This document shows, in pieces, positions 950 through 15,513 of a stretch of 18,322 nt of DNA. The notes under the pieces are model-generated. The model ran no database searches and was not told where the DNA came from. It was given only the letters and a program-made list of their open reading frames with translations. Position 1 is the stretch's first letter; the number at the start of each line of letters is the position of its first letter. Source of the stretch: a virus; the UHGV virus genome UHGV-1290461. One strand, written 5' to 3'. The position numbers were made by a program, and so were the translations under genes.

Positions 950-1411
950 TCACGTACTCGGATCATCTTTCTCGATGTAAAACCGATTCCACGTAAACGC
1001 GCTTTTTAACCCCGCCCCGCGAGGCATGTCATTTCGTCGCTCAAGTGGTGGTATTTTGGTTAAAGCGATACAGATTGTTTGATATGCACTGTCAGCAGCG
1101 GTAAGGAGAGCGTCTGACGGCTGAATGACGTTATCCATGCACACTTGCACAGCGAGTTTCAAGGCGACGCCATCATTTGCCCATGCAGGGATACCTGAAT
1201 CATCGTCAGGTAACGGCATGATGCCGTTTTCTGTATCAGCAAACTGATATCCAAGCTCGATACCTTTAGCCTGCCATGCTGCCATCATGTCTTCGAGGTC
1301 ATTAATGGCATCTTCAATTGCCTGAGGGTCAGCATCTGTCAACGTGGCATTGGAATACAGCCCGGCTTTTCGTAAAGCCTTAAGAACGAGATCACCCTTC
1401 GTTTTCGCCAT
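950..1411 (-). CDS. Head completion / tail accessory factor, P22 gp4-like
   Basis: 153 aa ORF. N-terminus MAKTKGDLVLKALRKAGLYSNATLTDADPQAIEDAINDLEDMMAAWQ matches the recalled P22 gp4 pattern (KTKGDLV..ALRK.G..SDATLTDV.PQ...DA.DDLE.MMA.W). Located after coat. Confidence 0.75.
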   Translation of the reverse strand: MAKTKGDLVLKALRKAGLYSNATLTDADPQAIEDAINDLEDMMAAWQAKGIELGYQFADTENGIMPLPDDDSGIPAWANDGVALKLAVQVCMDNVIQPSDALLTAADSAYQTICIALTKIPPLERRNDMPRGAGLKSAFTWNRFYIEKDDPST

Positions 1412-10241: not shown

Positions 10242-10317
10242 TGGTGCTGGTTAACGGACTTGAACCGCTACCCATTCGCTTACAAGGCGACCGCTCTACC
10301 ATTGGAGCTAAACCAGC
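10242..10317 (-). tRNA. tRNA-Thr (anticodon UGU), 76 nt with encoded CCA
   Basis: Hand-folded cloverleaf: acceptor GCUGGUU/AACCAGC (7 bp); D-arm GCUC/GAGC; anticodon loop CUUGUAA; T-arm AGCGG/CCGUU with loop UUCAAGU; discriminator A then CCA. Non-canonical points: G27-A43 mismatch and C at position 14. Confidence 0.65.
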
Positions 10318-10322
10318 ATGTT

Positions 10323-10397
10323 TGGCGGGACAGCGTGGACTCGAACCACGATAAGAAGGTTAACAGCCTTCCGTAATGACCTTTATACGACTGACCC
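10323..10397 (-). tRNA. tRNA-Asn-like (anticodon GUU), 75 nt with encoded CCA
   Basis: Hand-folded: acceptor GGGUCAG/CUGUCCC (one U-U mismatch); anticodon stem GAAGG/CCUUC with loop CUGUUAA (same loop as E. coli tRNA-Asn); T-arm CGUGG/CCACG with loop UUCGAGU; G73 then CCA. Weak D-stem and 4-nt variable loop. Confidence 0.55.
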
Positions 10398-10446: not shown

Positions 10447-10482
10447 CTGCTAATTATGGCTAAATGACTAATTGCATGTCAA
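10447..10482 (-). promoter_or_regulatory. Putative late promoter pR' (-35 TTGACA, 18-bp spacer, -10 CATAAT), overlapping the 3' end of Q
   Basis: Consensus -35 TTGACA at 10482..10477 (inside the last Q codons) and -10 CATAAT at 10458..10453, immediately after the Q stop codon. Confidence 0.5.
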
Positions 10483-10978
10483 GGCTTTTAACAGCAACAT
10501 GCTTAACTTTCTCAACACGTTTACGCATTTTGAAAGCATTTTGCATTGGCTGGTACAAAACAAATAACGACGCTTTCAGGATGTCGTCAATTTCGTTTCT
10601 ACAGGTTGCCAGTGAAGGTTTTCTCCATCCCTCGCCACCACGTCCACACATCTTGCGTGGCTTTGCAGTCGCGTGATAGTAGGATGCAATTGCTCGCTTA
10701 GATGAACCATGAGCGTAGTAGCTGAGGAGGATGCCAAAGGCTTTCTTGTCAATGTACATGACGGAATCGACGACCTGAGAAATCAACATTCCATCATCAT
10801 CATTACACATTGGCCTTGTCATAATTCTTCCCGGCTCTACGCTCTCCATGAACTTCGCTATTACGCTGCTCATGCGCTTTTCCAGACGACCTGAATAAAC
10901 CCATGCGCCCCACAGTTCAAGCCAGCCATTCAGCCACTCGTGCTGCTCTTTGGTGAGGTTTAGTTCTCTTATGCTCAT
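10460..10978 (-). CDS. Q: Late-gene antiterminator Q, phage-82/QuuD-like family
   Basis: 172 aa. Motifs LELWGAWVYSG and TRPMCNDDDGMLISQVVD resemble the ERWGAW and RPxCxDDDxM motifs of the phage-82-type Q family. Sits between the nin region and the lysis genes. Confidence 0.75.
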   Translation of the reverse strand: MSIRELNLTKEQHEWLNGWLELWGAWVYSGRLEKRMSSVIAKFMESVEPGRIMTRPMCNDDDGMLISQVVDSVMYIDKKAFGILLSYYAHGSSKRAIASYYHATAKPRKMCGRGGEGWRKPSLATCRNEIDDILKASLFVLYQPMQNAFKMRKRVEKVKHVAVKSLDMQLVI

Positions 10979-11163: not shown

Positions 11164-11522
11164 GCGTTCTCCAGTTCGGTGATTTTTATTCCAAGCCTTC
11201 CGCCTGGTACTTTCACGCCACGAATTACGCGAATGTCATCGAATTGCTCGTCGTCTTCCGCAAATCCGGCGTGGATAAGGGAGTCGAGTAAACCTTTCAG
11301 GATATTATCGAGGTCGCGACGGCGGGAGTCTGGAACGTCTGCGATGACTTTGATGCGGAGTCGTGATTTGGTGAAAATATCTAACTTGAGTTGGTGGATG
11401 ATTTGCTGAACGTCTTTTCGGTATTTCTGGCCTTTATCGCTGATGTAGTATTGGCTTCCCCGTCTTCGCCAGTAGGTATTCACCGACGGCGGGTATGGAA
11501 GCACAAACTGATATTCGTTCAT
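11160..11522 (-). CDS. rusA: Holliday junction resolvase RusA
   Basis: 120 aa. YPPSVNTYWRRRG, DVPDSRRRDLDNILKGLLDSL and GGRLGIKITEL match RusA (E. coli RusA is 120 aa and has the PDRRRRDLDN catalytic motif). Confidence 0.9.
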   Translation of the reverse strand: MNEYQFVLPYPPSVNTYWRRRGSQYYISDKGQKYRKDVQQIIHQLKLDIFTKSRLRIKVIADVPDSRRRDLDNILKGLLDSLIHAGFAEDDEQFDDIRVIRGVKVPGGRLGIKITELENA

Positions 11523-11797
11523 TGGACAAACACCCTCCCATTGTTAACCAATTTTTTAAGGGTAAGCACAATGGCCCGATCCATTTCAGCCCTTCGCTCT
11601 TCCCTGCTCATATCTCTCCCATTATCAATTCTTGAATGACAATCAACACATAGCGCAGCAGTAAGGCAATCATCTACTTTAATCCCAACCCCCTTCCCTT
11701 CATTTCTGTGAGCGGCCTGAACTCCGTATCTTCCGCAAAGAACGCAAAATTCAATATCCCTGACTGCCTGAAGCCATTTTTTGCTTCTAAACATCAA
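11519..11797 (-). CDS. YbcO-like (DUF1364) Cys-rich protein, putative metal-dependent nuclease
   Basis: 92 aa with Cys pairs FCVLCG ... CVDCHSR. Immediately upstream of rusA, as ybcO is in the DLP12 nin region. Start may be the second Met (11794). Confidence 0.5.
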   Translation of the reverse strand: MMFRSKKWLQAVRDIEFCVLCGRYGVQAAHRNEGKGVGIKVDDCLTAALCVDCHSRIDNGRDMSREERRAEMDRAIVLTLKKLVNNGRVFVQ

Positions 11798-12296
11798 TCC
11801 CCTCCAAAAAACGTCGGTACGCTGATTTGTTTTTTATGTTGCACACTGTCTGCGCACAAACACCAAATTCTTTGGCTATATCTCTGTATTTGCCTTTTGA
11901 TTTATATATTGATTTCACTTGTTCTGGCGTTAGTTTGCAGAAATGATGATTAAACCCATGAACAAGCAATCCGGAATCAAATCCATGTTTCGCATTTTCT
12001 GTTCGCGTTACCCACTCAAGATTTTCAACTTTATTATTAAGTTTATTTCCATCCTTGTGATTAACTTCCGGTTTGCCATCTGGGTTATCAATAAATACTT
12101 CTGCAACAATTCTGTGAACCATTTTATATGATGGTCTTTTCCCGCCACCTGGATACAGACCGACAAATGCATATCCTCCTGGTTTAATGCCATGAGATAA
12201 TTTTTTTGATTTACGGCATGAAATGATGTCTCCATTTTCAGTTACTTTATATATACCCTCAAAGCCGGGGATATCTTTTTCTTTAACATCACTCAT
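11787..12296 (-). CDS. HNH homing endonuclease (NUMOD4-like N-terminal motif plus HNH_3/AP2-type nuclease core, C-terminal helix-turn-helix-like tail)
   Basis: 169 aa. GFEGIYKVTENGDIIS (NUMOD4-like) and HRIVAEVFIDNPDGKPEVNHKDGNKLNNKVENLEWVTRTENAKH (HNH_3-like). The coding DNA is visibly AT-rich (about 36% GC by eye) against about 50% in the flanks. Confidence 0.8.
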   Translation of the reverse strand: MSDVKEKDIPGFEGIYKVTENGDIISCRKSKKLSHGIKPGGYAFVGLYPGGGKRPSYKMVHRIVAEVFIDNPDGKPEVNHKDGNKLNNKVENLEWVTRTENAKHGFDSGLLVHGFNHHFCKLTPEQVKSIYKSKGKYRDIAKEFGVCAQTVCNIKNKSAYRRFLEGIDV

Positions 12297-12823: not shown

Positions 12824-12996
12824 TTCCTCGCACGATGTCTTAGCCACCGGATATCCCACAGGTGAGCCGTGTAATTGAAGGTTTTTACGTCAGATTCTTT
12901 TGGGATTGGCTTGCGTTTATTTCTGGAGCGTTTCGTTGGAAGGTATTTGCAGTTTTCGCAGATTATGTCGGTGATACTTCGTCGCTGTCGTCTCAT
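12820..12996 (-). CDS. ninE: NinE
   Basis: 58 aa from the internal [61 protein letters not shown], matching lambda NinE as recalled. ATGA overlap with the ninB stop. Confidence 0.75.
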
Positions 12997-13403
12997 TCGT
13001 ACCTCCTGTCGGTAAATCTGACACCCTGACCAATAGCCCATGCTGTCGTGTACTCAATCAGACTTGCCATACGCTTCACACTCATCTGCGCGCTACTTTC
13101 GCGAATGTTGACGTATTCGCCTTCAAGGCCGGGCAAAACATCAGCTTCCTGCTTTGTTGCCACTGCATGACCGCTGATCAACAAAACCTTCCATTGTTCC
13201 GGTTTTAACCATTTGCCGCACCATTGAACCTGACGTGCGATATCCGCCAGCATCGCGTGAAATTTTGCGTTCTGGTCAAGGTTGCGCTTGTAGTCAGTAA
13301 TGCGGATGGTGACTGGCTTGTCTTTATCGAGTGGTGTTGCGAGGATGGCATTTATTGCAGCTTGCTGTTGTTGCTTAGTTCGGAGGAAGATTGTTTGCTT
13401 CAT
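12993..13403 (-). CDS. ninB: NinB (Orf-family recombination mediator)
   Basis: 136 aa. Motif [31 protein letters not shown] parallels lambda NinB (LDQNRKLWACLGDVSRQVEWHGRWLDAESWK as recalled). Confidence 0.8.
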
Positions 13404-13405
13404 CG

Positions 13406-13690
13406 TTACTCCTTCACTTTGACTCCAGCAGCGCGGATGGCGCTCTGCACCTCGCTTACATACAGATATGGGGTTCGCCCACTATGCATGGTAAAGCTTT
13501 CAGGAAGCTCAATCTCGATAGCTGCTCGCGATGCCTGCCATAAAGCCCACCACTCATTTAAGGAGTGACGAATATCCATGCTTGAAAATGCGAAGTACCT
13601 ATCACCATTTCTTGCCTCGGTTATCATCTCGAATGGTAATCTCAATTTTTTGGCAACGTATTCCTCAAACTGCTTTCTTGATTCGCCCAT
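13406..13690 (-). CDS. Hypothetical 94 aa protein (Trp-rich central motif NEWWALWQASRAA)
   Basis: ORF-track ORF 13406..13714 starts at a GTG; the first ATG (13690) lies 1 nt after the stop of the upstream ORF, suggesting translational coupling. No family recognised. Confidence 0.45.
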   Translation of the reverse strand: MGESRKQFEEYVAKKLRLPFEMITEARNGDRYFAFSSMDIRHSLNEWWALWQASRAAIEIELPESFTMHSGRTPYLYVSEVQSAIRAAGVKVKE

Positions 13691-13691
13691 A

Positions 13692-13907
13692 TCAATCCCC
13701 GTTAGTCGTTTCACTCACGAATCTGACAAAACCAGCCATGTTAATTTGCATGAGTTTTTTCAACACTTTGTCTCGCCGGCTACGTTTTGGTTTTGGCCTG
13801 TGGTTGAATCTTTCACAAACTGGAAGGCTTGATGATTTCCAGTACCTATTACGCCTTGCTCCATCTTCCGCCATATCGGCATGAATAAGGTCTGCGAGTG
13901 TGCTCAT
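13692..13907 (-). CDS. Hypothetical 71 aa protein with highly basic core (NHRPKPKRSRRDKVLKKL)
   Basis: ATG at 13907 preceded by GGAGAGG. The ORF-track start at 13913 is a GTG. No family recognised. Confidence 0.4.
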   Translation of the reverse strand: MSTLADLIHADMAEDGARRNRYWKSSSLPVCERFNHRPKPKRSRRDKVLKKLMQINMAGFVRFVSETTNGD

Positions 13908-13921
13908 ATTCACCTCTCCAG

Positions 13922-14104
13922 TTACATTGGTTTTGTAATGTTGCTAGTCATCTTAAGAATAAAAAAATGCGTACGTAGCTTTGCTTCCCACATGTAAATC
14001 TCCTCAAGGCGAGATAAATCTACGAATACCGGACCTTTGTAATCTGGTCTTGATGCCCTTATGTATGAGCTAATAGTTTGTGCATCTTGCTCGTCAAGAT
14101 TCAT
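13922..14104 (-). CDS. Hypothetical 60 aa protein (AT-rich coding sequence)
   Basis: ATG at 14104 preceded by AGAGGGAAG. The coding DNA is visibly AT-rich. No family recognised. Confidence 0.45.
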   Translation of the reverse strand: MNLDEQDAQTISSYIRASRPDYKGPVFVDLSRLEEIYMWEAKLRTHFFILKMTSNITKPM

Positions 14105-14297
14105 GACTTCCCTCTCTAACAGATTTCAGGTTATTCCACTCCGTTACCGCACTGCGATAATTCGCGGCCGCCACAGCAGCGTGGTTAGCGCAGTAGATTT
14201 GGCACCCGTTCTCCATGTCGAATATTGTCGGTGATTTTCCGCATTTACATTTTTTGGCACGCGGTGCGTCTGAACACATTCCGTTAATGGTGTCCAT
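14094..14297 (-). CDS. Hypothetical 67 aa Cys-rich protein (possible zinc ribbon)
   Basis: ATG at 14297 preceded by GAGGGGG at 6 nt. Cys at residues 8, 17, 19, 32 and 36 (CKCGK ... CQIYCANH). 3' end overlaps the start of the next ORF by 11 nt. Confidence 0.45.
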   Translation of the reverse strand: MDTINGMCSDAPRAKKCKCGKSPTIFDMENGCQIYCANHAAVAAANYRSAVTEWNNLKSVREGSHES

Positions 14298-14320
14298 CAG
14301 AATCCCCCTCGTTCTTAATC

Positions 14321-14352
14321 CAATAAAAAAGGACTACTGTGTAAATAGCCCC
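14321..14352 (-). terminator. Putative tR2-like intrinsic terminator downstream of the Ren-like gene
   Basis: Minus RNA GGGGCUA-UUUACACAG-UAGUCC (6-bp stem with one G-U) followed by UUUUUUUAUU. Lambda tR2 occupies the same position, between ren and the nin genes. Confidence 0.45.
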
Positions 14353-14378
14353 TGTTATTAGCTCAGTGATGTAGATGG

Positions 14379-14669
14379 TCATTGCCTTACCTCCATAAGC
14401 GCCCTATTAATAAACGCCGTCATTGGATTTGCACATCCCCACCCCGTACCATCTGGATTTCTTTTAATTGGCTCCTTCTTCACTTTGCGTTTTGCATAAA
14501 TAACCGTCTTCCACTTACGCTCAACAACACTCAAATGTCCTTGTTTCACCATATGCCTTGCTGCTTGAGCGATTCTGTTATTTGGTATTCCGGTGATCAG
14601 TGCTAATTCATGTGGGGAGAATTGTTCATGAGTTTTCAGATATTCCAGGATGATTTCTTTTCCAGTCAC
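14379..14669 (-). CDS. ren: Ren-like protein
   Basis: 96 aa. N-terminus MTGKEIILEYLKTHEQFSPHELALITG resembles lambda Ren (MTGKEAIIHYLGTHNSF... as recalled). Same length and position (after the replication loader gene). Confidence 0.55.
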   Translation of the reverse strand: MTGKEIILEYLKTHEQFSPHELALITGIPNNRIAQAARHMVKQGHLSVVERKWKTVIYAKRKVKKEPIKRNPDGTGWGCANPMTAFINRALMEVRQ

Positions 14670-15511
14670 GATCTGCTCCTGTAACTATCCCATGTAAACG
14701 CAAGAGTGCACCCGCCGCCATCATTCATCCTGTCAATAACACGCTCACCAATGAATGCAGACAGTTCATCTTTGCTCTGGTTGCTAATCAGGATTGTTGG
14801 CTTCATGCGCTCGTAGCGGGTGTTGATGATTTCGAACATGATCATCTTTTCCGCCTCGCTTCCAAACTGCACACCAACCTCATCGATAATTAGCAGGTCA
14901 GGTTTAGTGAACTGTCGGATCACTTCATCCTCTGTGCGGGTGGAGTTTTTCGACCATGTTGATTTATATTCTCTGGCAATTTTCAGCGCCGTTGTGAAAA
15001 TAGCTGAGCTTTGATGTTCCGTAATTGCGTGCCGGGCGATAGCCAGTGCAAGATGATTCTTTCCAGTACCAGGCTTTCCACACATAACCAGCCCACCGCC
15101 TTTCTGTAACCTCTCAGGCCATTTGTTGGCGTATGCCTGACACACCCTGAGCACTCTCTTTGCATCGTCGTTGATTGGCTCGTAGTTCTGTAGTGTGCAA
15201 CCCTTGAATCGTTCAGGAATATCAAGATTATTCAACAGAAACTCGACATTGCGCTTACGTGATTCTTCGTCGATTTTAATCTTCTCTGCCTGTAGCCGAA
15301 TAAGCTCATCTCTCAAGCATTCAGGGCATTCGCTAGGTCTTGAGGCAAACTTAATTGGCCCAGTCGAGTAACGGTTACGCTGCTCAAACTCACCATGTTT
15401 TTCACAGATGCCAGTGCCAATTTCTACAGCTGTATGCTCGATAGCAATTGGCGGAGAACTCAATTCTGCAAGTTTTTTCTCCAGTTGGGAGATCTTTTCA
15501 TCCAGCGTCAT
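14666..15511 (-). CDS. Replication helicase loader, DnaC-like AAA+ ATPase (functional analogue of lambda P)
   Basis: Walker A GKPGTGKNHLA and Walker B LLIIDEVG. Start placed at the ATG at 15511 (MTLDEK...), which has AGGAG 5 nt upstream and overlaps the O stop; the ORF-track start is 15529. ATGA overlap with ren at the 3' end. Confidence 0.85.
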   Translation of the reverse strand: MTLDEKISQLEKKLAELSSPPIAIEHTAVEIGTGICEKHGEFEQRNRYSTGPIKFASRPSECPECLRDELIRLQAEKIKIDEESRKRNVEFLLNNLDIPERFKGCTLQNYEPINDDAKRVLRVCQAYANKWPERLQKGGGLVMCGKPGTGKNHLALAIARHAITEHQSSAIFTTALKIAREYKSTWSKNSTRTEDEVIRQFTKPDLLIIDEVGVQFGSEAEKMIMFEIINTRYERMKPTILISNQSKDELSAFIGERVIDRMNDGGGCTLAFTWDSYRSRS

Positions 15512-15513
15512 GT

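Follow-up and report, generated by a model that had tools for sequence, protein, structure and literature searches.

In lambdoid phages the order of genes in the nin region is fixed as a rule. Phage lambda itself has no gene in the 73 bp between ren and ninB (ren ends at 40570 and ninB starts at 40644), and the initial annotation of the DNA described here was correct in giving lambda just a short spacer at this place. In Sf6 (genes 45-50) and in phage L/ST64T (ninA, orf90, orf69, orf86, orf98, ninB), the NinA ORF has tR2 inside it and is followed by three to five small coupled genes before ninB, with four annotated in each phage (46-49 in Sf6; orf90, 69, 86 and 98 in L). Genes that are tightly packed, with ATGA overlaps, are typical of every lambdoid nin region according to one description (PMC8022706).

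The window, by which we mean the whole stretch of DNA that was analysed (18,322 nucleotides of the virus genome UHGV-1290461), shows the same slot and the same strand logic. Its genes run in the order O-like, DnaC-like, Ren-like, NinA/tR2, four small genes, NinB, NinE, NinX, NinF and so on to Q, and the PHROG assignments of the neighbouring genes agree with the RefSeq annotation of a 98.7%-identical prophage. We therefore place the stretch at 13406-14352 in the nin region, where it fills the ninA/tR2-to-ninB slot within the early-right operon of a lambda-like prophage. The features discussed below are as follows.

14379..14669, minus strand: Ren/MarR-like 96-aa gene, the last gene before the terminator; phrog_1687 'MarR family', E = 6e-40
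14284..14382, minus strand: NinA-like 32-aa ORF (MTIYITELITG...), putative product, enclosing the tR2-like terminator; phrog_5907, E = 1.7e-16
14329..14353, minus strand: tR2-like intrinsic terminator, a 10-bp hairpin and U-run found in a terminator scan
14094..14297, minus strand: o67, Cys-rich 67-aa protein with ATG start and 5 Cys, module 1; phrog_6308, E = 8e-51
14100..14115, minus strand: junction AGAGGGAAGTCATGAA at the o67/o60 border, 16/16 bases of the lambda ninB ribosome-binding site and start
13922..14104, minus strand: o60, AT-rich 60-aa gene (GC 37.7%), left part of module 2; phrog_21123, E = 1e-39
13692..13907, minus strand: o71, basic 71-aa DUF7301 protein with ATG at 13907, module 2; PF23975, phrog_1785
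13406..13690, minus strand: o94, 94 aa with ATG at 13690, phiTE_015 / PF26207 / phrog_343 family, internally mosaic, module 3
12993..13403, minus strand: ninB (Orf recombination mediator), the conserved right-hand anchor of the slot

At one border of the slot, the Ren-like gene, which also matches phrog_142 'Ren-like exclusion protein' (E = 3.5e-13), occupies the position of lambda ren, and the ATGA junction into ninA is common to both phages. At the other border, the window ninB, whose start region with its Shine-Dalgarno sequence is AAGGAGTAACGATG, is 97.8-100% identical to the annotated NinB of records L001-L003. The NinA-like ORF aligns both with the lambda ren-ninB interval and with Sf6 gene 45, which is annotated as 'similar to phage 21 NinA' and bears both an annotated tR2 and a 'bsq6 boundary sequence'. 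The terminator noted earlier in this position was confirmed as a hairpin and U-run: the hairpin folds at -14.7 kcal/mol (z = -4.4; 0/200 shuffles fold equally well), and it is aligned in position with lambda tR2, although its stem sequence is wholly different. The lambda/Sf6 alignment, the fold, the annotations of Sf6 and phage L, and tblastn all identify this region as a NinA/tR2 element. The 32-aa NinA homologue had been passed over in the initial annotation; in some homologues (P0002) it is joined in frame to o67. With regard to other RNA elements, Rfam gave only two tRNAs, elsewhere in the window and none in the cassette, and the cassette held no meaningful repeat and no further terminator or promoter beyond shuffled expectation.

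Between these borders, the initial annotation had reported four packed minus-strand ORFs of 67, 60, 71 and 94 aa, and we verified their coordinates, their Shine-Dalgarno sequences and the overlaps and abutments between them. The ORF list had given o71 as a 73-aa GTG version ending at 13913 and o94 as a 102-aa GTG version from 13714. A purine-rich Shine-Dalgarno sequence lies ahead of every start, and stops and starts overlap or abut; the start regions are GAGGGGGATTCTGATG for o67, GAGGGAAGTCATG for o60 (overlapping the o67 stop), GGAGAGGTGAATATG for o71 and GGGGATTGATATG for o94. All four ORFs match PHROG families (E = 1e-23 to 1e-51). Variable sites were concentrated at third codon positions (9/8/22, 8/7/15 and 6/9/16), and NG86 dN/dS was 0.21 for o67, 0.29 for o60 and 0.11 for o71, compared to 0.07 for ninB. 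Thus o67, o60 and o71 are under purifying selection (dN/dS 0.1-0.3). Having too few comparable alleles, o94 was omitted from the dN/dS run: there were just 4 full-length ungapped alleles with 4 variable sites, 0 of them at third positions, and the codon changes were 0 synonymous versus 4 non-synonymous.

It could be argued that some of these ORFs, chiefly o60 and o67, are chance ORFs or recombination scars and not genes, given that RefSeq PGAP calls nothing at their positions in two near-identical prophages, that o60 is rich in AT and its family very narrow, and that one o60 allele has a stop codon inside it. However, the ORF is intact in 19/20 o60 alleles and in 43 o67 alleles; each of the two genes has a good Shine-Dalgarno sequence and a coupled start, and each shows the third-position excess along with the dN/dS values given above; and both are PHROG families called as proteins in many GenBank records. 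We therefore consider such an origin very unlikely, and the four small genes to be real, beyond chance ORFs.

The initial annotation had gone on to propose that the four genes make up one undescribed accessory system, of an anti-defence, host-takeover or toxin/antitoxin-like kind. The genes do lie on a single strand, are translationally coupled and are under purifying selection wherever this was measurable, and the complete order recurs in some prophages (MB64 and UPEC_U013, with 88% coverage of the block). The co-occurrence data nevertheless speak strongly against a single system. By megablast, at least 80% of the four-gene stretch was present in only 2 of the 498 matching E. coli genomes and in 0 of the 42 matching phage records. 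Among IMG/VR loci, o67 directly adjoins ninB without the other three genes in 64/80, an o94-family gene stands beside ninB in at least 35/80, with o67, o60 and o71 all missing, and the full order o67-o60-o71-o94 family is seen in 14/80 o67 loci and 15/48 o60 loci; these module frequencies are biased, since the sample is redundant, consists mostly of Escherichia and Salmonella prophages and was gathered by searching with the window's own proteins. Moreover, the genes found upstream of the o94 family are of at least five kinds, o60 is missing from a divergent DUF7301 clade, and PADLOC, Pfam and NCBIfam returned no toxin, antitoxin or defence match for the four proteins. A single co-functional system is extremely improbable on these data, which largely refute it, and the sole invariant adjacency, from DUF7301 to the o94 family, holds in one direction. 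The initial annotation had itself named a survey of this slot, and lack of conservation as a block, as what would overturn its proposal; because the block is not conserved and splits instead into three modules, the proposal fails on its own terms. The recurrence of the full order in a minority of loci may still allow for some co-function.

Comparison of the related genomes instead indicates a slot filled by three modules that assort independently: o67; o60 together with o71; and the remainder of the o94-family gene, module 2 extending into the conserved 5' end of this next gene. Breakpoints cluster at query 93-113 (the middle anchor of o94), 255-278 (its 5' anchor) and 695-711 (the o67/o60 junction), and many megablast records break at query 695 and 711, at the last of these. 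The modules are joined at short conserved junctions, namely AGAGGGAAGTCATGAA, the opening of the o94 family (~10 codons) and its middle, WQASRAAIEI, and related genomes break exactly at these three places. Such a pattern is that expected of homologous recombination at boundary sequences between lambdoid phages. The module borders are in this way mapped at base resolution, and the lambda ninB ribosome-binding site and start are reused as a recombination joint.

Within module 2, o60 and o71 were found together in 48/48 IMG/VR loci. The o60 family is small, with only 11 clusters found; o60 lies upstream of the window-type DUF7301 allele in 35/40 unique contexts, and the divergent DUF7301 clade has no o60 upstream. 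The assignment of o71 to DUF7301 is clear (108.6 bits versus a cut-off of 27, E = 1.6e-31, covering model positions 1-64 of 65), a protein identical to o71 is named 'DUF7301 family protein' by PGAP, and tblastn gave 64% identity over 64 residues to orf69 of phage L/ST64T. The compositional features reported earlier for the four proteins were also borne out: o67 has 5 Cys, o71 has a pI of 10.35 and 15 K+R, o60 has a GC content of 37.7%, and o94 has 3 Trp in NEWWALWQ.

The o94 protein belongs to the phrog_343 family (E = 3.3e-23). Nearly all of the 120 homologues listed bear a precomputed PF26207 label, and the PF26207 assignment of o94 comes from such labels only, because the copies of Pfam and NCBIfam searched directly with o94 gave no match. 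PGAP calls a 67%-identical homologue 'phiTE_015 family protein', and tblastn with o94 reaches phage phiTE itself (E = 8e-5). In a 32-sequence alignment of the family, three anchors were invariant or nearly so, and o94 holds all of them: N-terminal M-D/G-E-S-R-K-x-F-E, central W-Q-A-S-R-A-A-I-E-I and C-terminal I-R-A-A-G-I/V-K-V-K-E. Two hypervariable segments reassort on this framework, with 26 x 23 types, 54 combinations and 46 four-gamete quartets. The family looks like a conserved helical scaffold with two swappable variable segments, and these segments fit recognition of polymorphic partners.

An o94-family gene lies directly after DUF7301 in all 65 unique contexts examined (40/40 and 25/25), the divergent contexts coming mostly from IMG/VR because a GTDB genome scan for DUF7301 gave a single locus. 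This invariant adjacency could mean that DUF7301 (o71) works together with the o94-family protein as a two-gene functional pair, with o94 setting specificity and DUF7301 serving as cofactor or regulator. It holds across two DUF7301 clades that are only 59-64% identical and across many o94 variants, in contexts that include an Enterobacter prophage, and the DUF7301 stop and the o94-family start abut or overlap; a specificity subunit would also agree with the way in which the two variable segments reassort like cassettes on their conserved scaffold. The dependence is one-way, however: among 98 unique o94-family contexts DUF7301 is upstream in 39, and the remaining upstream neighbours are small membrane proteins, an Sf6 gp47-like protein and others. 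The adjacency may also be positional only, since nin-region gene order is fixed as a rule; a recombination boundary also lies at the conserved 5' end of o94, and this alone would keep DUF7301 adjoining o94. On balance we regard a functional pair as rather unlikely. That the two genes further constitute an unrecognised conflict module, with exchangeable segments tuned to polymorphic targets in host defence or rival phages, is quite doubtful; were the pair a counter-defence or exclusion module of this kind, able to swap its specificity, the known anti-defence repertoire of temperate enterobacterial phages, Shiga-toxin phages among them, would gain a new family.

Turning to module 1, the o67 family is narrow, with 8 representatives found in an exhaustive profile search of 1.84 billion proteins. 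Four of its Cys residues (C8, C17, C19 and C32) do not vary, C36 and H39 are almost invariant, and the AF2 model (mean pLDDT 67) has four short strands and a helix at 39-63. Genes of the Lar family (PF14354) lie directly 5' of ninB in sibling phages, and o67, which is similarly small, shares the position of these genuine Lar genes, 5' of ninB and overlapping its start. By eye, the Cys pairs C17xC19 and C32xxxC36 followed by a long helix with A-x-x-x-W-N recall the A..WNRR of Lar, and hhalign aligns exactly this helix. A divergent Lar-type zinc-ribbon restriction-alleviation protein is thus conceivable, but systematic comparison did not bear it out. The true Lar proteins of the slot score 50.5 and 37.8 bits against the Pfam cut-off of 28.6, whereas o67 matches no Pfam family at E <= 1; BLASTP of o67 against a true Lar from the slot gave no alignment at E <= 100; hhalign of the family alignments covered the helix (AVTEWNNL in o67) over 15 columns only, with a probability of 2%; the profile search of 1.84 billion representatives found no relatives beyond the narrow family; and Foldseek against BFVD found no match for the low-confidence model (best E = 1.8). 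In addition, the knuckles of o67 are CxC and CxxxC, and those of Lar are two CxxC. A Lar identity is accordingly improbable, and we consider o67 to be probably a small metal-binding protein at the position of true Lar genes in sibling phages. Members labelled 'HNH endonuclease' and 'NinX' in the 90% clusters of o67 and o60 showed no similarity to either protein when placed side by side, and we took their presence there to be a clustering artefact.

Because they lie downstream of a tR2-type terminator, the four genes would, as in lambda, be delayed-early, read from pR only after N antitermination, and, with their overlapping or abutting stops and starts, they would be translationally coupled. 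Apart from DUF7301, nothing matched the four proteins in searches of Pfam, NCBIfam, PADLOC, and PDB sequences and folds. The initial annotation was right to call the proteins unassigned, but not in regarding the cassette as undescribed, for all four proteins are in catalogued families (phrog_6308, phrog_21123, DUF7301 and phrog_343). Its suggestion of an anti-defence role gains some ground from the Lar genes in this slot of sibling phages, whereas the PADLOC, Pfam and NCBIfam searches gave no sign of a toxin-antitoxin or defence-system character. We found no papers on DUF7301, phiTE_015, PF26207, PF23975, the PHROG ids or 933W L0091. Judged by position and composition, the products may be non-essential accessory proteins acting individually, most plausibly by binding host or competitor factors. 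If DUF7301 and the o94-family protein were a functional pair, 'acting individually' would be wrong for those two.

Taken together, the observations are in all likelihood best explained by a nin slot that holds three shuffled modules, recombined at boundary sequences, expressed as delayed-early genes and encoding individually acting accessory proteins. The four genes are pieces of the well-known variable nin region, and their families are already catalogued and present in hundreds of E. coli and Salmonella genomes. As first posed, then, the finding matters little, the region being an ordinary, heavily mosaic nin region. The candidates for experiment are the narrow Cys-rich family at the Lar position and the invariant DUF7301-to-phiTE_015-family pair.

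With regard to the described systems, lambda and the window share the ATGACCATCTACAT...CTGAGCTAATAACAGG leader, a hairpin and U-run at the same place, and AGAGGGAAGTCATGAA; in the window, however, the hairpin stem is replaced, ~900 bp of genes stand where lambda has none, and the sequence that starts lambda ninB serves o60. Sf6 and phage L are closer in content. Sf6 gp48 and o94 share 75% identity, and phage L encodes a DUF7301 protein (orf69) and an o94-family member (orf86). Neither o67 nor o60 is related to Sf6 genes 46, 47 and 49 or to phage L orf90 and orf98, and the particular combination of o67, o60, o71 and this o94 allele is rare. More broadly, Silas et al. (bioRxiv 10.1101/2023.04.06.535777) have described phage accessory regions, hotspots where variable genes for anti-defence gather. 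Signature peptides of the four proteins were absent from those supplementary files of that screen and its follow-up (PMC12373910) that were available to us, and these files list no phenotype for the proteins. The slot resembles such regions nonetheless: it is likewise highly variable, it holds small, putatively non-essential genes between two conserved anchors, the replication genes and ninB, and known counter-defence genes (Lar) are among the alternatives that occupy it.

Gene assignments, made from PHROG matches and from a prophage (98.7% identical) annotated in RefSeq, identify this part of the window as the early-right operon of a lambda-like prophage, in which the minus strand carries every gene. 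In order of transcription, the features are:

15514-16359 (-), O-like initiator, first of those listed
14666-15529 (-), DnaC-like loader
14379-14669 (-), Ren/MarR-like gene, 96 aa
14284-14382 (-), 32-aa ORF, NinA homologue, enclosing the terminator hairpin
14353-14329 (-), tR2-like terminator hairpin, inside the 32-aa ORF
14094-14297 (-), o67, 67 aa, Cys-rich
13922-14104 (-), o60, 60 aa, AT-rich
13692-13907 (-), o71, 71 aa, DUF7301 protein
13406-13690 (-), o94, 94 aa, phiTE_015 / PF26207 family
12993-13403 (-), ninB, followed by NinE, NinX, NinF, HNH endonuclease, RusA and Q

Between NinF and RusA, in the nin region (window 11519-12296 (-)), lie a 169-aa HNH endonuclease ORF (11787-12296) and, beside it, a 92-aa ORF that matches an HNH-endonuclease PHROG. 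Genes for tRNA-Thr(tgt) and tRNA-Asn(gtt) are found at 10242-10397 (-), just 3' of the Q-like antiterminator gene (10460-10978).

The terminator hairpin consists of 10 bp and a U-run, with a folding energy of -14.7 kcal/mol (z = -4.4). The DNA of the surrounding 32-aa ORF aligns with the lambda ren-ninB interval and with Sf6 gene 45, which is annotated as 'similar to phage 21 NinA' with tR2 and a 'boundary sequence' marked inside it; the alignment identifies the ORF as the NinA homologue. Some GenBank records name this peptide 'histone H1'. An in-frame fusion of the ORF with o67, 98 aa long, occurs in some homologues from E. coli (P0002, with 20 member sequences).

The initial annotation had described small ORFs between the tR2-like terminator and ninB, and this observation was confirmed: its four lengths agree with our ORF list, o67 has five cysteines, o60 is AT-rich (GC = 37.7%), o71 is basic (pI 10.35), o94 carries the Trp-rich motif NEWWALWQ, and each gene is preceded by a Shine-Dalgarno sequence, with stops and starts abutting or overlapping. 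The phage L paper describes ATGA overlaps and tight packing as general to lambdoid nin regions (PMC8022706). The four ORFs are real genes. All of them match PHROGs (E = 1e-23 to 1e-51), variable sites among alleles from related loci are enriched at third codon positions, and NG86 dN/dS was 0.21 for o67, 0.29 for o60 and 0.11 for o71, compared with 0.07 for ninB on the same loci. We left o94 out of this estimate, having only 4 full-length ungapped alleles that differ at 4 non-synonymous sites; because comparable alleles are so few, its coding status rests on family evidence. The positions of o60 and o67 are empty in the RefSeq PGAP annotation of two near-identical prophages (97-98% identical to the window; L001 3085-3555 and L255 1897-2370), which looks like under-annotation rather than gene absence since both ORFs show purifying selection.

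Searches assigned no function to any of the four proteins. The DUF7301 hit of o71 was the only Pfam match among them, and none of the four matched NCBIfam, PADLOC or PDB sequence profiles, and a weak predicted model of o67 (pLDDT 67) had no structural match. PF26207 is the precomputed label on nearly all of 120 listed o94 homologues; a local Pfam-A scan found no match for o94 or 32 family members, this copy seemingly being without the PF26207 model. The o67 family is very narrow (8 representatives among 1.84 billion proteins). The 90%-identity clusters of o67 and o60 also hold HNH endonucleases (161-201 aa) and NinX proteins (122 aa); we rejected these identities, as neither protein is visibly similar to the co-clustered sequences, and the co-clustering is probably an artefact of chimeric ORF calls.

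Lar-family anti-restriction genes (PF14354) scoring above the Pfam cut-off lie directly 5' of ninB in 19 fetched loci, E. coli MB64 among them; therefore, the slot hosts counter-defence genes. These genes (1180-1362 (-) in L255, and 18 other loci) stand between the o94-family gene and ninB, and in one locus the o94-family ORF reads through into Lar, forming a fusion. By eye o67 itself resembles Lar, with Cys pairs and a helix bearing A...WN, but profile, BLASTP and profile-profile tests against Lar were all negative, and we consider it unlikely that o67 is a Lar-type protein.

When the whole four-gene stretch was compared with 5426 complete E. coli genomes and with phage records, 498 genomes gave a partial match and only 2 reached at least 80% coverage, as did 0 of 42 matching phage records. 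This rarity, in a slot already known, leaves the proposal of an undescribed four-gene system unsupported. IMG/VR loci were fetched separately by each protein and then scored for all four. In 64 of 80 loci o67 had NinA/tR2 and ninB as its immediate neighbours, o60 and o71 were found together in 48/48, and in no fewer than 35 of 80 loci an o94-family gene was the sole member of the four before ninB; the full order was present in 14/80 o67 loci and 15/48 o60 loci. Breakpoints in other genomes cluster at three points of the query: 695-711, where o67 meets o60; 255-278, in the first codons of o94; and 93-113, in its conserved middle. The o67/o60 junction, AGAGGGAAGTCATGAA, is identical at 16/16 bases to the lambda ninB ribosome-binding site and start; in most phages o67 ends in ...GSHEKTNL, overlapping a lambda-type ninB start, and in the window the same joint runs into o60, not ninB. 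Such a pattern would be expected of recombination at short conserved boundary sequences. Taken together, the comparison shows three independently assorting modules (o67; o60 with o71; the rest of the o94-family gene) joined at conserved boundary sequences within a known variable slot.

The adjacency of DUF7301 to the o94 family is the sole robust linkage among the four genes. An o94-family gene immediately follows DUF7301 in 65/65 unique contexts (loci L132-L177, L259, L308-L336): 40/40 with the window-type allele, which has o60 upstream in 35 of them, and 25/25 with a divergent clade (59-64% identical, including an Enterobacter prophage), where the preceding gene is orf90-like, of some other kind or absent. 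The linkage is one-way: of 98 unique contexts of the o94 family, just 39 have DUF7301 upstream; in the remainder, small two-helix membrane proteins, an Sf6 gp47-like protein or others take its place. These other occupants (loci L178-L254) include at least three families (52-77 aa) whose members have two hydrophobic helices, together with the 66-aa gp47-like protein, and had no Pfam match.

Members of the o94 family share three conserved anchors (MDESRKQFEE, WQASRAAIEI and IRAAGIKVKE) separated by two hypervariable, unalignable segments. Among 155 distinct proteins, segment 1 falls into 26 types and segment 2 into 23, and these pair in 54 combinations and yield 46 four-gamete quartets. The window o94 has the commonest type of both (homologues in loci L178-L254, L308-L337). 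In its AF2 model (pLDDT 81) the helices and two short strands are built from the anchors, and confidence is lowest in the second variable segment.

By analogy with lambda, the four genes would be delayed-early, read from pR via N-dependent read-through of tR2, and may be translationally coupled. Their position and composition suggest that the products could be non-essential small binding proteins in phage-host or phage-phage conflict, with the o94 family as a putative scaffold for exchangeable recognition segments and DUF7301 as its possible partner. The finding is an ordinary one; experiments might be worthwhile only for the pair that DUF7301 makes with the phiTE_015 family and for the mosaicism within genes of that family. 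In lambda the ren-ninB gap is 73 bp and holds no gene, whereas the window has four small genes there; in Sf6 the same slot is occupied by genes 46-49, of which gp48 is 75% identical to o94, and in phage L/ST64T by orf90, orf69, orf86 and orf98, where orf69 is a DUF7301 protein (64 residues aligned with o71 at 64% identity) and orf86 belongs to the o94 family.
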